Source: SAR86 cluster bacterium (GTDB lineage: Bacteria; Pseudomonadota; Gammaproteobacteria; Magnimaribacterales; TMED112). Taken from it: 64,000 bases of DNA. Shown one piece after another: positions 2,856 to 64,000 of the stretch. The stretch is taken from NCBI GenBank assembly GCA_016779525.1, contig JADHNL010000002.1:4437-68436 (forward strand), read 5' to 3'. The notes under the pieces were generated by a model. It made no database searches and was not told where the DNA came from. It saw only the letters and a program-made list of their open reading frames with translations. Both the position numbers and the translations under genes were made by a program. Position 1 is the stretch's first letter, and the number at the start of each line of letters is the position of its first letter.

Positions 2856-5647
2856 TGTCAAAATCAATTGAGGAGAAAATCCTAGACAGCTTTAAATATG
2901 GAGGTAACTCAAACTACCTCGAAGATCTCTACCAAAAATACCTTTTAGACCCTAATGAAATAGACAGTGATTGGAAAAATTACTTTGATTCCATCCATAC
3001 AAATGTAGAAGAGAGAAATCACCAAGCTATTCAAGACCGGTTTAAGAATATCCGACTCAGCAGAAAAAGCCGCAATGAAGAGAAAACTGTTCTTGAGTCA
3101 CCAAAAAGTTCGGAAGTACAAAATTTAATCAATGCATTTAGAAGAAGAGGTCATCAGGTAGCAAAAATTGATCCTCTTCACCTAAGAAAAGAAAAAAATA
3201 TCTCAGACCTAAATCTTTCATTTCATAACTTATCTGAAGTTGATTTAGAAACATCATTTGCTCTTTCAAATTTTCAAGACGGAAAAACAATGACACTAAG
3301 TGAAATCAAGACCTCAATTGAGCAAACCTATACTTCAAATATTGGTTACGAATTCATGCATATTGTCGATAGCAAGATTCGTAGATGGTTCCTAGATAAA
3401 ATTGAGGGAAAAGCAAACCCATACGCTTTTACTGGCGATGAAAAAAAACAAATTCTCAAGCGTGTTGTTGATTCAGAAGGTCTTGAAAAATTTCTAGCTT
3501 CTAAATACCCAGGTGCAAAAAGGTTTGGTTTAGAGGGGGGAGAGTCCTTAATTCCACTCTTAGATACACTTATTGAAGATTTTGGTTCTAAGGGGGTAAA
3601 AGAAGTTTGTTTAGGCATGTCTCACAGAGGCCGTCTGAACGTTTTAATAAATGTAATGGGTAAGAAGCCTAGCGAGCTATTTTCAGAGTTCGCCGAGGAA
3701 CTAGATGCACATGATGCCAGAACAGGAGATGTAAAATATCACTTAGGATTTTCCTCCAATGTTCTAACAAGTGGCGGCGAAGTACACCTCTCACTTGGTT
3801 CAAACCCATCTCATTTAGAGATTGTCAATCCTGTAATTCTTGGCTCAGTTAAAGCTCGACAAGACAGAAGACAAGATGAGAAGAAGAAAAAAGTTGTTCC
3901 AATCTTAATGCATGGTGATGCGTCTTTTGCTGGGCAGGGTGTAGTAATGGAGATTCTTCAACTGTCGCAAACTAGAGCTTTTGGAGTTGGAGGAACAGTA
4001 CACATTGTTGTGAATAATCAAATTGGTTTTACCACTAGTTTGAAAAAGGATGCAAGGTCAACTGAATATTGTACAGATGTAGGTAAAATGATTGAAGCTC
4101 CAATATTGCATGTCAACGGTGATGATCCAGAGGCTTGTGTTACTGCAGCAAAACTGGCTGTTGAATTTAGAGATACTTTTAAACGAGATATTATTATTGA
4201 TTTTGTTTGTTATAGAAGGAGGGGTCACAATGAAAGCGATGAACCGTTTGCTACTCAACCTTTAATGTATAGCAAAATCAAATCAAAAAAGACGGTTACT
4301 GAACTTTATTCTGATAAGTTAATTTCAAATAACACAATAAGTATTGAACAATTTGAAAACTTCAAATCAAACTACAGAGCAAATATGGAAAAAGGAGAAC
4401 TGGTGGCATTATCGATGGCTTCAGACCCTGACCGATCTATGTATTTTGACTGGACCCCATACCTGAAACCTGATAAGAAAAAAACCTACCCAACAGCTGT
4501 TAGTATGGCGCAGCTTAAAGAGTCATTTAAATATTGTTTAGAGATCCCTGAAAGTTTGCAAATGCAAAAACAAGTTGAAAAGCTTTATCAAGATAGAACT
4601 TTGATGGCAAAAGGAGAGATGAGAATAAATTGGGGTTTTGCAGAAATGGTTGCGTATGCCACTTTACTACAGGATGGTTACCCAGTGAGAATGACTGGTC
4701 AAGATTCTAGAAGAGGAACATTTTCCCATAGACACTTAGTTGTTAAGGATCAAATCTCTGGTGAAGGTTTTGTTCCTATATCAAGACTAAATAAGGGCAA
4801 TAAAAAATTTGAAATATTTGACTCTTTATTGTCTGAAGAGGCTGTTCTTGGATTTGAGTATGGCTACTCCTCAACATGGCCAGAGGGCCTAGTAATTTGG
4901 GAAGCTCAGTTTGGGGATTTTGCTAATGTTGCCCAGGTAGTTATTGATCAGTTTATAGTCAGTGCTGAAACAAAATGGGGAAGACTTTCAGGGTTGACTA
5001 TGTTTCTACCTCATGGGTATGAGGGTCAAGGCCCTGAACATAGCAGTTGTCGATTGGAAAGGTTTTTACAGCAATGCGCATATGATAATATCCAAGTCTG
5101 CGTTCCAACATTGCCATCACAAATATTTCATTTGCTAAGACGTCAAACTGTAAACCCACAGAGAAAACCACTGGTTGTCTTGACACCAAAAAGTTTACTG
5201 AGAAATCCTCAAGCAACTTCAGAATTAGCTGATTTAACTAATGGCACATTCAAAAATATAATTGTCGATGAAACAAACAAGCAACCAAGAAAAGTTATTT
5301 TGTGCTCAGGTAAGGTTTATTTTGATATCTTAACTGAAATAAAAGAGAAAAAAATTGAAGATATTCAGCTTATAAGAGTTGAGCAACTATATCCTTTTCC
5401 TGAATCTGAGCTTATTGCCTGTACCAAAAAAATTAAAAGTAAAGATTTTTACTGGGTTCAAGAGGAGCCAGAGAATATGGGGGCCTGGTTAATGATACGC
5501 CACAGGATAGAAAAAGTTCTTAATGAAACGAAAAAAGGATACAAGCTGAGCTGTATTGCAAGAAATCCATCGGCAGCTCCAGCAGGTGGATATCAAAAAT
5601 ACCATCAAAAACGACAAAAAGAGATAGTTAGGAAAGCTTTACAGTAA
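2855..5647 (+). CDS. sucA: 2-oxoglutarate dehydrogenase E1 component
   Basis: 930 aa with a GTG start at the sdhB stop. Motifs YRRRGHNESDEP, WEAQFGDFAN, GYEGQGPEHSS. Confidence 0.97.
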   Translation: MSKSIEEKILDSFKYGGNSNYLEDLYQKYLLDPNEIDSDWKNYFDSIHTNVEERNHQAIQDRFKNIRLSRKSRNEEKTVLESPKSSEVQNLINAFRRRGHQVAKIDPLHLRKEKNISDLNLSFHNLSEVDLETSFALSNFQDGKTMTLSEIKTSIEQTYTSNIGYEFMHIVDSKIRRWFLDKIEGKANPYAFTGDEKKQILKRVVDSEGLEKFLASKYPGAKRFGLEGGESLIPLLDTLIEDFGSKGVKEVCLGMSHRGRLNVLINVMGKKPSELFSEFAEELDAHDARTGDVKYHLGFSSNVLTSGGEVHLSLGSNPSHLEIVNPVILGSVKARQDRRQDEKKKKVVPILMHGDASFAGQGVVMEILQLSQTRAFGVGGTVHIVVNNQIGFTTSLKKDARSTEYCTDVGKMIEAPILHVNGDDPEACVTAAKLAVEFRDTFKRDIIIDFVCYRRRGHNESDEPFATQPLMYSKIKSKKTVTELYSDKLISNNTISIEQFENFKSNYRANMEKGELVALSMASDPDRSMYFDWTPYLKPDKKKTYPTAVSMAQLKESFKYCLEIPESLQMQKQVEKLYQDRTLMAKGEMRINWGFAEMVAYATLLQDGYPVRMTGQDSRRGTFSHRHLVVKDQISGEGFVPISRLNKGNKKFEIFDSLLSEEAVLGFEYGYSSTWPEGLVIWEAQFGDFANVAQVVIDQFIVSAETKWGRLSGLTMFLPHGYEGQGPEHSSCRLERFLQQCAYDNIQVCVPTLPSQIFHLLRRQTVNPQRKPLVVLTPKSLLRNPQATSELADLTNGTFKNIIVDETNKQPRKVILCSGKVYFDILTEIKEKKIEDIQLIRVEQLYPFPESELIACTKKIKSKDFYWVQEEPENMGAWLMIRHRIEKVLNETKKGYKLSCIARNPSAAPAGGYQKYHQKRQKEIVRKALQ

Positions 5648-60495: not shown

Positions 60496-61743
60496 CTAAA
60501 ACTCTGGGTAGGCTTCAACACCTATTTCTTCAGCATCCAACCCTTTCTTTTGAATTTCATCAGAGGCTCTAACTGGAGCTACCAAATTTAGTAAAAATAG
60601 GAACGCATAGGTCAATACAAACCCCCAGAGGACAATTGAAACAACGCCATACAGCTGAGAACCAAATGTTGCTTCCGCGTTGGTAAATGGCACAACCATA
60701 ACACCAAATATTCCAGCTGCTCCATGGGCGGAAATAGCACCCACCGGGTCATCAACTTTAAAGAATTGTTCGAATGCAACCAATGCTCCATAACAAATTA
60801 GACCGCCAATAGCTCCAATTAGAGTAGCTTCATAACCACTTGGAGATAATGGATCTGCAGTTATTGAAACTAGTCCTGATATGGCACCATTTAATGCATA
60901 AATGATGTTGGTTTTTTTGAAGAACACTCTGGCAACCACTAAACATGAAATAACACCTCCTGCAGCAGCCATATTAGTATTTAGGAATACTTGAGCTACA
61001 GCATTAGCGTTTTCAACGTCTTGTATTGCAAGTTGTGAACCGCCATTAAAACCAAACCAACCCAACCATAGAACAAAAGTTCCCAATGCAGCAATTGGAA
61101 TATTTGCACCGTAAAGTTTATTTGTTTCAGCTACAGGAAAAAGCCCATAACGCTTACCTGACACTTTGCCATATTTACCGAGTCTTGGACCAATAAATAT
61201 TGCTGCAGCTAAGGCACATGCAGCTCCAATTAAATGGACTGTTCCTGAACCAGCAAAATCTGAGTAGCCATCTTGTTTTAAGAATCCGCCACCCCAATTC
61301 CAGAAACCTTGCACAGGGTAAATGAAAGCTGCTATAAAGACGACCAAAGCAAAAAATGGCCATTGGTTCATTCTCTCAGCAACAGCACCCGATACAATTG
61401 AGCAAGCTGTGGCAACAAAAACTACTTGAAAGAAAAAATCAGCAGATTCTGAGTAGCCATAACCATCAACGACTGTATCAGCAGTAGTGCTTCCAAAACT
61501 AAAATCGTAAGCTGGCACGATTGTTCCAACGGGAACGTCGCCTGGGTACATTACCATGTACCCACATAATAAATACATGAAGCAAGCAATTGAGTAAAGG
61601 CCGATATTTTTTGTAACTATTTCAGCCGTATTTTTTCTTCTGACAAGACCTGCCTCAAGCATGGTAAAGCCTGCTGCCATCCACATGACTAAAGCAGCAG
61701 TTATCAACATATATAACGTATTTAAAGCGTATTCGATTTCCAT
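60496..61743 (-). CDS. amtB: Ammonium transporter (Amt family)
   Basis: 415 aa with 11 TM-like segments. Motifs DFAGSGTVHLIGA, WLGWFGFNGGS, ISAHGAAGIFG. Confidence 0.96.
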   Translation of the reverse strand: MEIEYALNTLYMLITAALVMWMAAGFTMLEAGLVRRKNTAEIVTKNIGLYSIACFMYLLCGYMVMYPGDVPVGTIVPAYDFSFGSTTADTVVDGYGYSESADFFFQVVFVATACSIVSGAVAERMNQWPFFALVVFIAAFIYPVQGFWNWGGGFLKQDGYSDFAGSGTVHLIGAACALAAAIFIGPRLGKYGKVSGKRYGLFPVAETNKLYGANIPIAALGTFVLWLGWFGFNGGSQLAIQDVENANAVAQVFLNTNMAAAGGVISCLVVARVFFKKTNIIYALNGAISGLVSITADPLSPSGYEATLIGAIGGLICYGALVAFEQFFKVDDPVGAISAHGAAGIFGVMVVPFTNAEATFGSQLYGVVSIVLWGFVLTYAFLFLLNLVAPVRASDEIQKKGLDAEEIGVEAYPEF

Positions 61744-61752
61744 ATTAGCCCT

Positions 61753-62349
61753 TTAAAATGATGCTCCGACAGTAAAAAATAGCCCGTCCTCATCTTCTAG
61801 TCCTGATGCACTATCGGCCGTAAATGAGCTATAACCCAAAGACGCGTCATATTCACCTAAAGAAAATCCATAACCGACTAGAAAGTTAGATCCTGTGTCT
61901 TCGTAATCTCCATAAGAAAATGAGAAATCACCAAAACCATATGATATGTCGTAATAGTCACCAAATTCATCACCAAGGTAGTATGAGAAACCCACACCGG
62001 CATATGACAACGCTACGTAAATCTCTGAAAAATCGGCATCCGTTACCTCAGGGTAAGCATAATTGATGTAACCAACATCCCATCCAAGACCACCATCGGT
62101 TTCACCCGCGTAGCCTATATAGGTATCAAGTTCCAGACCTGCACCACCAAAAGCAACATTAGAACCCCAAGTACCAGCATAAAAGCCACCTTCAGAGCTA
62201 TAATCAAATCCACCACTGTATGCGGGAGCATCCATAGTTTGGGACATCCCTCGCCAGAAGTAATTTGATGAAAATGAAAAGTTTGAGGACACACCTGCAA
62301 ACACATTCAACGTTAGAAATATGGCTAAAGCCATCATTCCTTTTTTCAT
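61753..62349 (-). CDS. Small outer-membrane beta-barrel protein (TIGR02001/Gcw_chp-like) co-transcribed with amtB
   Basis: 198 aa. Signal peptide, SSNYFWRGMSQT and aromatic/Gly-rich alternating strands, terminal F. Only 9 nt upstream of amtB. Family assignment is from memory. Confidence 0.78.
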   Translation of the reverse strand: MKKGMMALAIFLTLNVFAGVSSNFSFSSNYFWRGMSQTMDAPAYSGGFDYSSEGGFYAGTWGSNVAFGGAGLELDTYIGYAGETDGGLGWDVGYINYAYPEVTDADFSEIYVALSYAGVGFSYYLGDEFGDYYDISYGFGDFSFSYGDYEDTGSNFLVGYGFSLGEYDASLGYSSFTADSASGLEDEDGLFFTVGASF

Positions 62350-62418
62350 AAAAACATCTCCTTATTAAAAATAAGTGTGTTAAGAATTGAAAAAGGGCTA
62401 AACCTTCATAGTTTAGTA

Positions 62419-62471
62419 GCCGCGTTCCTTCAGCTTTCGCTTACTTCCGTCCTCGAAGAGGATGAACGATT
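62419..62471 (-). ncRNA. glnA RNA motif (glutamine riboswitch) in the porin-amtB leader
   Basis: The minus strand reads AUCGUUCA-UCCUC-UUCG-GAGGA-CGGAAGUA-AGC-GAAA-GCU-GAAGGAACGCGG. This gives P1 CGUUC/GAACG, two GNRA/UNCG-capped stems, and the conserved ACGGAAGUA and GAAGGAACG junction strings of the glnA motif. Confidence 0.8.
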
Positions 62472-62478
62472 AGACGCT

Positions 62479-62556
62479 GCTCCTTTTTTACCATGGAGTA
62501 TGGTTTAACTTTTAACCCATGTTATATGGGCTCCTTTTAACCCATGGAGTATGGGG
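62479..62556 (-). promoter_or_regulatory. Three tandem mini hairpin / H-type pseudoknot units in the porin-amtB leader
   Basis: On the minus strand: CCCAU-ACUCC-AUGGG-UUAAAA-GGAG; CCCAU-AUAAC-AUGGG-UUAAAA-GUUA; CCAU-ACUCC-AUGG-UAAAAAA-GGAG. In each unit the loop 4-mer is complementary to the 4-mer after the A-rich linker. Confidence 0.6.
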
Positions 62557-62604
62557 ATAAAAAATATCTTCTTTATAAACACCATTTATAAATTAACATA
62601 AACT

Positions 62605-62633
62605 AAATTAATGTTGTAAGATGTAAATGTCAA
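62605..62633 (-). promoter_or_regulatory. Candidate sigma-70 promoter of the porin-amtB leader
   Basis: On the minus strand: TTGACA (62633-62628), a 17 nt spacer, then TAATTT (62610-62605). This predicts a leader of roughly 250 nt. Confidence 0.4.
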
Positions 62634-62764
62634 TAAAAAATACCGAGTATTTGATGGATCCAGAAGATGCAGAAAAAATTGATTTTGCTAATCAAAGGGT
62701 AGCTGTGCTGGGTGGTGGAGATGCAGCTATGGAAATAATCTTATACCTAAATAAAACCTGTTGA
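62627..62764 (+). pseudogene. Possible relic of a TrxB/AhpF-like pyridine-nucleotide-disulfide oxidoreductase (45 codons)
   Basis: The short ORF MSIKNTEYLMDPEDAEKIDFANQRVAVLGGGDAAMEIILYLNKTC contains an isolated NAD(P)H-binding VAVxGGGxxAxE..LYL motif. The rest of such an enzyme is absent. Confidence 0.3.
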
Positions 62765-62827
62765 TGTTCTAACTTTCAAAATTAATAAATGTTTGAAAAA
62801 AAATCGTTCTTGATATACATTGAAAAT

Positions 62828-64000
62828 ATGGGCTTTTTTAAAAAACTTTTAATAAGTGTTTCAATAATATTATTAGTCTTATCTTGTGGGTCATCAGATT
62901 CACCGGCACCACCCCCAGAATTTAAACCAATACCTGTAAATATTTCATTTAGCGCTTCTAGTGAACAAGTTCCTACAGATGCTGGAGATGTAACATTAAA
63001 ATGGTCAGCACTCACAGCTACTTATTGCGAAGCATCTGGAGACTGGTCTGGACAAAAAGATACAGTCGGTACTGAGGTAATCACATTTACTACTACTGGA
63101 GATCGAACGTTTACTCTTAATTGTCGAAATCGAACAAGTAGTTCTGAAGAGTCATTAAATGTTTACTATTTTGTACCTGCTGATGGTTATTTAGTTGACG
63201 GCTATATTGAGGGTGCATATTGTGTACAAAGTTCATCTTTGGAGTATGACGAATCATCGCGAATTGTCTCGTTAACAGATTCTTTTGGGTACTTCAAAGT
63301 TGAAGATGGACAGGCAAATGTTATCTGCAAGGATGGAACAGATAATTCTACTGGAAAAGATCTAACTGGATTGATTCTTTCCAATAATCTAGAAAATAAA
63401 GATGTAAATAATTTTTTTGTTACTCCGCTAAGTACACTAGTTTTAAATGTAGAAAGCCAAGGGAATTCTAATCCAGAGGAGCTTGCCAAAAATGCTTTAG
63501 GCATAGATTCGGAGATAAATATTAATGAGAAAGACCCATTTTCTGAAAGAGAGTTTAGCGAGGAAAATAAATTTTATTTTGAAAAAAATGCTCAATCTGT
63601 AGTCCTTGCTCTTGGTTTATCGAAAGTTTTTTCACATTCCAGTACCAATGAAGCTTTTGATGGAATCGCAAAAATATTGATTGAAGAATTTCAATCATTA
63701 TCGCAAGAACAAGCAATTAACATAGAGAATAAAGCTTTTATAGAAAAAGTAATGAAGTATATAAATAACTCAATGGAATTAAGTGAGGTGCAAAATAAAG
63801 CTTTAAATATGTTGAGCACCACCTTGCCAATTATATCGGTAAAAAACACAGAGAATAACACTAATGCTGTAGTAGGTTTTGCTACTAATACCCTTTTAAA
63901 AGATATTGCAGATTTAATTAACAATAATCTGGCAGATGATGTTTTTAACAACTATAGTGACGCTGAATCTTTAGTTGATTATATTGCTGCGGAGGAGGGA
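62828..64000 (+). CDS. Putative lipoprotein of unknown function (3' end outside window)
   Basis: Not in the ORF track because it has no stop in the window. I translated 391 uninterrupted codons from ATG 62828: MGFFKKLLISVSIILLVLSCGSSDSPAPPP... (signal peptide plus lipobox Cys), then Ig-like and helical regions. The three minus-strand track ORFs here are shadow ORFs. Confidence 0.75.
   Translation, partial: MGFFKKLLISVSIILLVLSCGSSDSPAPPPEFKPIPVNISFSASSEQVPTDAGDVTLKWSALTATYCEASGDWSGQKDTVGTEVITFTTTGDRTFTLNCRNRTSSSEESLNVYYFVPADGYLVDGYIEGAYCVQSSSLEYDESSRIVSLTDSFGYFKVEDGQANVICKDGTDNSTGKDLTGLILSNNLENKDVNNFFVTPLSTLVLNVESQGNSNPEELAKNALGIDSEININEKDPFSEREFSEENKFYFEKNAQSVVLALGLSKVFSHSSTNEAFDGIAKILIEEFQSLSQEQAINIENKAFIEKVMKYINNSMELSEVQNKALNMLSTTLPIISVKNTENNTNAVVGFATNTLLKDIADLINNNLADDVFNNYSDAESLVDYIAAEEG

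Follow-up and report, generated by a model that had tools for sequence, protein, structure and literature searches.

The 64,000-nucleotide window analysed here (positions 4,437–68,436 of contig JADHNL010000002.1, from a SAR86 cluster bacterium) carries on its minus strand a porin–amtB operon whose leader contains a glutamine riboswitch and, 9 nt upstream of it, an array of three short units that is the subject of this work. Each 25-nt unit consists of a 4–5 bp hairpin (stem 1, S1) with a 5-nt loop, an A-rich linker (loop 3, L3), and a tail of four nucleotides (S2′) complementary to the loop (S2). Read 5′ to 3′ from 62556, the minus strand is C-CCCAUACUCCAUGGG-UUAAAA-GGAG, CCCAUAUAACAUGGG-UUAAAA-GUUA, A, and ACCAUACUCCAUGGU-AAAAAA-GGAG, with the units occupying 62555–62480; Tandem Repeats Finder reports an array of period 25 and 3.0 copies at 62479–62555. 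The original prediction, made from the letters of the window, had placed three tandem hairpin and complementary-tail units at 62479–62556, just upstream of a glutamine riboswitch, with a compensatory change in unit B. Its coordinates hold to within 1 nt, the minus-strand reading and the repeat finder both recover the units, and the riboswitch lies where it was expected, the RF01739 model spanning 62470–62419 only and leaving the array outside. The compensatory change is likewise real: CUCC/GGAG in units A and C is replaced by UAAC/GUUA in unit B, so that three of the four stem-2 pairs differ on both strands.

The sequence CCATNNNNNATGG occurs in the window only at the three array sites, a count that is weak alone, as 5 of 100 shuffles reach three. 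A generic pseudoknot pattern of 4 bp, 5 nt, and 4 bp is expected ~17 times per shuffled window by chance, so a single unit would mean little. All four loop–tail pairs can form in 3/3 array units, as against one of the 45 other sites in the window that combine a hairpin, an A-rich linker, and a G. Three adjoining units with a common stem 1 and A-rich linker are not a product of chance.

Table 1 Features of the porin–amtB leader and operon in the window
Feature	Position	Strand	Sequence or parts	Basis
Predicted pseudoknot unit A	62531..62555	(-)	CCCAU-ACUCC-AUGGG-UUAAAA-GGAG; S1 62555-62551/62545-62541; L1 A62550; S2 CUCC 62549-62546; L3 UUAAAA 62540-62535; S2′ GGAG 62534-31	Sequence; only L3 varies across 13 SAR86 species; family covariation
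Predicted pseudoknot unit B	62506..62530	(-)	CCCAU-AUAAC-AUGGG-UUAAAA-GUUA; S1 62530-26/62520-16; L1 A62525; S2 UAAC 62524-21; L3 UUAAAA 62515-10; S2′ GUUA 62509-06	
Unit B S2′ with following AACC			Also 5′ strand of possible long-range helix	RNAalifold, pair counts
Spacer between units B and C	62505	(-)	A62505	
Predicted pseudoknot unit C	62480..62504	(-)	(A)CCAU-ACUCC-AUGG(U)-AAAAAA-GGAG; S1 (A)CCAU 62504-00/AUGG(U) 62494-90; L1 A62499; S2 CUCC 62498-95; L3 A-rich 62489-84; S2′ GGAG 62483-80	
Glutamine riboswitch aptamer, glnA type	62419..62470	(-)		RF01739, 67 bits, gathering 35, E 1e-12
Conserved post-aptamer element	62392..62404	(-)	GGUUUAGCCCUUU (GGUUUGACCCUUU in most species)	RNAalifold
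Shine-Dalgarno and AUG of porin gene	62347..62363	(-)	AAGGAGAUG + AUG	Conserved in all species
Candidate sigma-70 promoter	62605..62633	(-)	TTGACA-17-TAATTT	Read off alignments; conserved in SAR86 relatives
Porin gene, operon gene 1	61753..62349	(-)	Gcw_chp/TIGR02001 family, 198 aa	PF09694
amtB ammonium transporter, operon gene 2	60496..61743	(-)	415 aa	PF00909 in syntenic loci

Regions upstream of porin homologues were gathered from metagenomes and, one for each species, from genomes. Three units, one aptamer, the porin, and amtB are present at all 13 SAR86 species loci, and the array is nearly invariant across them while porin identity drops to 63% and the flanking intergenic, promoter-proximal DNA and the variable riboswitch stems diverge; the riboswitch helices P1a and P2 covary among the same species. 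The few changes in the array fall mostly in the linkers (UUAAAA, UAAAAA, AUAAAA; in unit C UAAAAAA, CAAAAAA, CUAUAAA, UAAUAAA, and CUAAAAA). Beyond these, L1 changes from A to U, the unit C loop is 4 nt long in one clade (loci L016, L039, L040, and L339), and in L031 the GGAG of unit C becomes GGGG with the pair kept as a U·G wobble. Taken alone, the SAR86 sequences bespeak strong purifying selection with almost no covariation.

The wider family supplies the variation that SAR86 does not. A scan of viral contigs in which stem 1 and linker were fixed and loop and tail left free returned mostly noise, plus several phage contigs with perfectly complementary new loop/tail sequences, in arrays. Patterns of tandem units identified 25 array-bearing phage contigs and, with the SAR86 type excluded on purpose, at least 69 array-bearing metagenome contigs among 120 matches listed; these collection scans used fixed stem-1 words. 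Among the matches listed, the arrays comprise 2–5 units set 0–2 nt apart, in uncultured marine phages and other marine bacteria, and the units, 24–26 nt long, follow the consensus nCCAU-A-NNNC-AUGGn-(U)UAAAA-GNNN.

For the test of stem 2, units were defined by stem 1 and linker only, and stem-2 complementarity was never used. Fifty-two of the 59 distinct units pair at all three free stem-2 positions and seven at two, whereas shuffling the tails among units left on average 9.2, and at most 21, fully pairing. Sixteen different loop 4-mers occur, each with its matching tail (CUCC/GGAG, UAAC/GUUA, AGUC/GACU, AGAC/GUCU, GAAC/GUUC, GAGC/GCUC, GCUC/GAGC, GAUC/GAUC, GUAC/GUAC, CAGC/GCUG, and CAUC/GAUG among them). 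When pairs were counted in 50 distinct units without gaps, drawn from SAR86, other bacteria, and phages, 98.3% of cells paired versus 75.2% in shuffles, and the covariation score was 0.589, reached in 0/500 shuffles, versus 0.120 in shuffles, while controls in which the partner was slid scored 0.04–0.12. Each free stem-2 pair shows 20–29 double changes, the outer pair of stem 1 also covaries (CG 35, UA 10, GC 5), and one unit has the stem-1 variant CGAU/AUCG. The loop (consensus A-NNNC, 4–5 nt) pairs with the downstream 4-mer, and its last base abuts the 3′ arm of stem 1 in 59/59 units, leaving no loop 2 (L2 = 0). The conserved sequence comprises CAU/AUG, the L1 A, UAAAA, and the closing C-G, with stem 2 free to vary. 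The units are almost certainly H-type RNA pseudoknots, of the compact kind first proposed (L1 = 1 nt, L2 = 0, A-rich L3), and the expectation that homologous leaders would keep the repeats and show covariation is borne out by the 13 SAR86 species and the family-wide pair counts, respectively.

Several points weigh against this reading. The array barely varies within SAR86, where the support amounts to the single U·G wobble of L031, and L339 has one uncompensated outer pair (AAAC/GUUA). Because part of stem 1 and L1 was preset in the search patterns, the conservation of CAU/AUG and of L1 is in part a product of the search; a scan without the stem-1 constraint (three UUAAAAG 25 nt apart) found no new stem-1 types, returning unrelated perfect repeats and known arrays, and only three true arrays among them. 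An L1 of 0–1 nt across a 4-bp stem 2 is also stereochemically tight. A nested ViennaRNA fold, in which pseudoknots are not modelled, gives stem 1 only, at -5.0 kcal/mol. Separately, viral contigs L367–L381, several labelled GVMAG, contain perfect 25-nt tandem repeats with TTAAAAG that are unrelated to the pseudoknot family.

The stem-2 covariation bears on whether the units act as DNA. As 15-bp palindromes 25–26 bp apart (CCCAT-N5-ATGGG), they could bind a dimeric factor, or unit C could be a sigma-54 -24/-12 element (TGG-N10-GC), for TGGTAAAAAAGGAGC carries GG and GC at sigma-54 spacing and related lineages use a sigma-54 promoter for the operon (TGGCAC-N5-TTGCA). However, covariation of loop and tail has no DNA-binding rationale, every array is in the sense orientation behind a predicted promoter or a terminator-like hairpin, and unit B is without the GC; a DNA-level operator is very improbable. 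A sigma-54 or sigma-70 promoter inside unit C was rejected, as the distance from GGAGC to P1 ranges from 4 to 10 nt and a sigma-54 start would thus land inside P1 in L016 and L039.

A gathering-threshold scan of the whole window with Rfam 15 returned the glutamine riboswitch only, permissive scans (E ≤ 10) of the SAR86 array region and the phage arrays found no other family beyond chance level, and full-text literature searches found no description of the motif. The original prediction had assigned the arrangement to no named RNA family, and so it stands: absent from Rfam 15 and the searchable literature, the mini-pseudoknot array family ranks as a strong candidate for a regulatory RNA class not described before, one that would act in concert with the glutamine riboswitch. 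Three phage arrays, compared by BLAST with 50,697 isolate phage genomes, found no counterpart, and the capsid protein encoded beside phage arrays is at most 33% identical to those of isolate phages.

The resemblance to preQ1-I riboswitches noted at the outset survives in architecture. What the units share with preQ1-I, S-adenosylmethionine (SAM)-II/V, guanidine-III, and fluoride aptamers is a compact H-type pseudoknot in which stem 1 is ~5 bp and stem 2 is 3–4 bp long, L1 is short, and an A-rich L3 lies in the minor groove, together with a place in the 5′ leader and a stem-2 3′ strand overlapping the expression platform. It fails in the particulars: the preQ1-I model RF00522 has no match, even at E ≤ 10, on 62340–62660 or the phage arrays, and whereas preQ1-I has an L2 with a conserved C that pairs preQ1, the array units have no L2 and so no obvious ligand pocket. 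Aptamers of the preQ1-I type measure at least 34 nt, against 24–26 nt here; the arrays go with nitrogen assimilation and small basic proteins, not with queuosine or SAM, and no que genes are associated with them. The polarity also seems reversed, the shared strand of the array being anti-Shine-Dalgarno (anti-SD) and its fold putatively ON, and the units, unlike those aptamers, always come 2–5 together with differing stem-2 sequences.

Several small sensor modules per leader are likewise found in tandem glycine and glutamine riboswitches, SAM-II/SAM-V, and mini-ykkC (guanidine-II), and a mixed tandem SAM-II/SAM-V pair occurs in another streamlined marine bacterium (PMC11508383). The array units differ in being pseudoknots rather than hairpins and far smaller than glutamine or glycine aptamers, and their 4–5 nt A-NNNC loops do not match the hexaloops of ANTAR targets (A1, G4) or the ACGR tetraloops of mini-ykkC. 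Glutamine riboswitches RF01739 and RF01704 (Downstream-peptide, glutamine-II) share the association with amtB, gltB, and short-peptide open reading frames (ORFs) (PMC2864571, PMC6212724), and glutamine-II binds using a pseudoknot helix (PMC6698751); although physically adjacent to one in SAR86, the arrays have no sequence or structural similarity to them. The upstream pseudoknot domains (UPDs) of tobamo- and bromoviruses are also head-to-tail ~25-nt H-type pseudoknots able to stack coaxially, but they lie in the 3′ untranslated region (UTR) of eukaryotic RNA viruses beside a tRNA-like structure, whereas the arrays occupy bacterial and phage 5′ leaders and have other conserved bases. No pseudoknot family except the brome mosaic virus (BMV) domain UPD-PK1 (RF01108) came up in the permissive Rfam scan, and its score was no better than chance (13.4 bits versus gathering 38, E 6.5).

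Tandem short repeats, each pseudoknotted, upstream of a protein gene recall the type III antitoxins ToxI and CptI, whose hallmark they are (PMC4627078), and the array could be such an antitoxin or another processed repeat RNA. Those antitoxins, however, are near-identical 34–36 nt repeats that are processed and bound by a downstream-encoded endoribonuclease toxin. Units of 24–26 nt with a stem 2 that is deliberately different are another matter, and no ToxN/AbiQ/CptN-like gene follows the arrays but porin–amtB, gltB, or basic proteins of 30–75 aa, which leaves this origin scarcely credible. As improbable is a role as leader mini-ORFs or as a decoy of GGAG motifs for the ribosome or CsrA. Units A and B contain AUG GGU UAA, with a GGAG 10 nt upstream of the unit B AUG, but linker variants in relatives (TAAAAA, ATAAAA) destroy or lengthen the mini-ORF, and most family members are without GGAG or an in-frame stop. 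The SD-like GGAG stressed in the original prediction is present in units A and C but is no family feature, most other units having different 4-mers. CsrA/RsmA sites need a GGA core, which only CUCC/GGAG units possess (12/59 distinct units), while the others carry tails such as GUUC, GACU, and GCUC; the decoy role proposed there is therefore disfavoured.

The gene contexts are few. Among the matches listed, arrays precede only the SAR86 porin–amtB operon, gltB, and genes for small basic ALRxYQK proteins. Both amtB and gltB are classic glutamine-riboswitch targets (PMC2864571), and with short peptide ORFs they are the gene classes of the two glutamine riboswitch classes (PMC2864571, PMC6212724). 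A glutamine aptamer accompanies the array in the porin–amtB context, while gltB and small-protein leaders have arrays without any; among pattern-scan loci an aptamer regular expression matched beside an array only in L339, a SAR86 leader, and in L197 it matched without an array. The gltB arrays, of two units, are found on long contigs of cellular origin, from an AT-rich marine bacterium, and begin ~7 nt after a predicted TTGCTA-17-TATAAT promoter; the adjacent PrmA-like gene has its nearest named relative, at 42% identity, in Ca. Dadabacteria. Across cellular loci, the array begins 0–10 nt past the transcript start predicted from the -10 box. In L248, L259, L283, and L308 a conserved K-N-P-L coding stretch, preceded by a strong SD (GAGGUG), separates the array from the annotated gltB AUG; some species have it in frame with gltB, read from a UUG/GUG start, and others as a short overlapping upstream ORF.

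Small basic proteins (30–75 aa, core HSxALRxYQKxxxxK) are by far the commonest context among the matches listed. A cellular example, L324, stands beside hisI-like and other housekeeping genes; in phages the order is major capsid gene, hairpin, array, small peptide, HNH endonuclease, and giant glycosyltransferase. The array always precedes the small, very basic proteins, cellular and phage alike (L201 430–540, L230 9420–9524, L324, L313, L284, and L260). No relative of the small proteins downstream of arrays was found in Pfam, PHROG, or PDB, and a 73-aa member has only five homologues found, none named; an identity as IF7/IF17-like (DUF4278) factors was considered and dropped, as Pfam, PHROG, and PDB gave it no support. 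The array is one instance of a modular, putatively cis-regulatory element, widespread in marine bacteria (at least two lineages) and many uncultured phages.

In every context, segments of the array are complementary to downstream translation signals or, in SAR86, to the post-aptamer element. In many small-protein leaders, the 3′ stem-2 strand of the last unit and the next bases, GUUCAAAUAC, pair with GUAUUUGAA right before the AUG; the resulting hairpin occludes the SD (-11.7 kcal/mol, z -3.6, nested minimum free energy fold), and its helix is kept through A-U to G·U and A-U to G-C changes. Other small-protein leaders pair GACAC with the GUGUU of GAGGUGUU, and in two-unit leaders the junction of the stem-2 3′ strand and the next stem-1 arm (CCUCUC, CCUCAU) pairs with the SD (GGGAGG, GUGAGG). 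In SAR86, RNAalifold pairs GUUAAACC (the unit B tail GUUA, AA, and the unit C arm) with the invariant post-aptamer GGUUUGAC, and AAAGG of unit A (L3/S2′) with the post-aptamer CC..UUU. This long-range pairing of 8 + 5 bp is compatible with 13/13 sequences, in which 100% of cells pair and four positions change with preservation of the pair, and such a role of the unit B tail would explain its different, frozen stem 2. Leaders that have aptamers only form the same GUUAAAC/GUUUGAC helix locally, as a hairpin directly behind the last aptamer. CAU(A)CUCC of units A and C may pair, though without covariation, with the complementary GGAGAUG at the porin SD and AUG. An intrinsic terminator after the aptamer was rejected as not canonical, since the U-run is down to three in several species. 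A mini-ORF AUG AAG GUU UAG (M-K-V-stop, 62398–62409) overlaps the post-aptamer element; a UGA/UAG swap between species preserves its stop, and it is absent from aptamer-only leaders. It was rejected as coding, as were the unit mini-ORFs, because the frame is not conserved, being broken in L339.

We consider it somewhat probable that the array is a cis-regulatory conformational switch with the pseudoknot fold as its ON state. Within a unit, stem 1 (nCCAU/AUGGn) would stack on the 4-bp stem 2, and, with units only 0–2 nt apart, the array could stack into one rod. Folded pseudoknots would lock up the 3′ strand of each stem 2 together with the 5′ arm of the unit that follows; unfolded, the same segments would pair with the downstream element, the two folds being mutually exclusive. 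In gltB and small-protein leaders, that element would be the SD or pre-AUG region, which the unfolded array would cover, so that the pseudoknot fold would mean translation ON. In SAR86, it would be the conserved GGUUUGACCCUUU a little downstream of the glutamine aptamer, and the aptamer would then be enclosed by a long-range helix competing with units A–C, making a two-input leader. The compact, glutamine-bound aptamer would favour closure of that helix (OFF), in agreement with glutamine repressing amtB, and a factor that stabilises the pseudoknots would oppose glutamine and favour ON.

Some observations sit uneasily with such a switch. The long-range helix and the anti-SD pairings show one-sided changes only and no double compensations, the shuffle control for the SAR86 helix is uninformative (500/500), and some SD hairpins would lose only the lower 4 of ~14 bp to the pseudoknot. 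Phage arrays follow the capsid gene and a hairpin, with no obvious promoter. A rival view is that the arrays sense nothing and form a constitutive stacked rod at the 5′ end that guards the mRNA from decay dependent on that end, insulates the ribosome-binding site, or enhances translation. Arrays do start at the predicted 5′ end of cellular transcripts, and tandem pseudoknot domains in plant-virus 3′ UTRs enhance translation, the sole pseudoknot near-match in Rfam being the chance-level one to BMV UPD-PK1. We think this unlikely, for it does not account for the complementarity to SD or platform that recurs in every context, the confinement of arrays to three gene classes, or the strict conservation of unpaired bases, and the phage arrays are internal to a transcript.

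From the sequences we infer which fold is ON, that the switch is coupled to glutamine, and that a trans factor exists. Such a factor would be universal, to judge by the conserved unpaired bases, the occurrence across lineages and phages, and the tight gene set, and gltB and small-protein leaders have no other sensor. One possibility, about as doubtful as the constitutive rod, is an array of protein-binding operators, in which each pseudoknot binds an RNA-binding regulator or S1/30S and occupancy sets translation or stability. Small, repeated, sequence-conserved motifs with a free stem 2 suit it, and autoregulation by the very basic, small downstream proteins is conceivable. However, copy number varies from 2 to 5, the factor must be universal to serve SAR86, another lineage, and phages, and no candidate protein is encoded beside SAR86 or gltB arrays. 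The repetitive architecture of mini-ykkC was also taken to suggest protein binding (PMC2864571), yet the element was later reported as a guanidine riboswitch, as cited in PMC5737381 (its reference 50).

For the trigger of the proposed switch we lean towards a small nitrogen-status ligand, a metabolite, with a protein or the ribosome as the alternative. Riboswitch traits lend this indirect support: the pseudoknot itself, the large number of conserved bases, the occurrence in several lineages, the consistency of the gene set, and a switching strand that is shared. The most attractive reading of the SAR86 array would be a second sensor acting alongside the glutamine riboswitch. Further than that, we suggest only tentatively, as a possibility short of probable, that the mini-pseudoknot represents a new class of riboswitch and, at ~24 nt, the smallest aptamer module in nature, working as cooperative stacked arrays and sensing a nitrogen-status ligand of the glutamine, 2-oxoglutarate, or ammonium type.

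Related lineages arrange the leader of this operon differently. In uncultured sister lineages (L019, L021–L024, L093), two or three tandem glutamine aptamers lead the porin–amtB operon in place of the three pseudoknots and one aptamer of SAR86, the two-aptamer leaders preceding glnA–porin–amtB. Loci L025–L028 and L094–L097 have a sigma-54 promoter (TTGGCAC-N5-TTGCAT) ~60 nt upstream of the porin start and no riboswitch, and their operon is porin–glnK–amtB, while that of SAR86 is without glnK. Directly before its first glutamine aptamer, L019 has a lone degenerate unit, CCAUAUUUUAUGGGUAAAAGUUAAAA (~235–275), with stem 1 and GUUA tail as in unit B and a loop that no longer pairs; it may be a relic joining the two leader types. 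The glnA-type riboswitch found here lies in a gammaproteobacterial porin–amtB leader; according to a study of 2018, glutamine riboswitches occur in cyanobacteria only (PMC6212724).

Upstream of the array, the candidate sigma-70 promoter would place the units inside the transcript; it is assigned from conservation only, a simple promoter scan not having called it. A palindrome, TTATAAA-N5-TTTATAA (62573–62591, minus strand), directly 5′ of unit A, is conserved in all SAR86 species; its mismatches are uncompensated, which suggests an operator or promoter element in DNA rather than a hairpin in RNA. The porin shares 99% identity with that of the metagenome-assembled genome MED-G83. The divergent neighbour (window 62627–64000, plus strand) is gltB in relatives L001 and L008; here this region holds a 45-aa ORF like the N-terminus of an FAD/NAD-binding oxidoreductase, then a lipoprotein gene leaving the window. 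The window and the 99%-identical L029 part right at the promoter, and this switch of sequence may be a rearrangement breakpoint.

SAR86 bacteria are among the most abundant in the surface ocean, where nitrogen often limits growth, and the presence of the element at amtB and gltB in streamlined marine bacteria suggests control by RNA modules rather than by classical PII/NtrBC proteins. The 24–26 nt pseudoknot, with a unique stem-2 ‘address’ in each unit, is a building block new to the catalogues and would be a compact modular part for RNA engineering. It is a covariation-backed candidate for ligand screening and would offer a natural case of two different RNA sensors wired into a single leader, and its occurrence in phages draws attention to small basic proteins, an uncharacterised family that phages carry behind this element. 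Should the riboswitch reading be true, SAR86 would have an all-RNA, two-input controller of ammonium uptake in an operon lacking the glnK of its relatives, and phages would have captured the sensor to time the production of small basic proteins, possibly targeting the nitrogen assimilation of their hosts.

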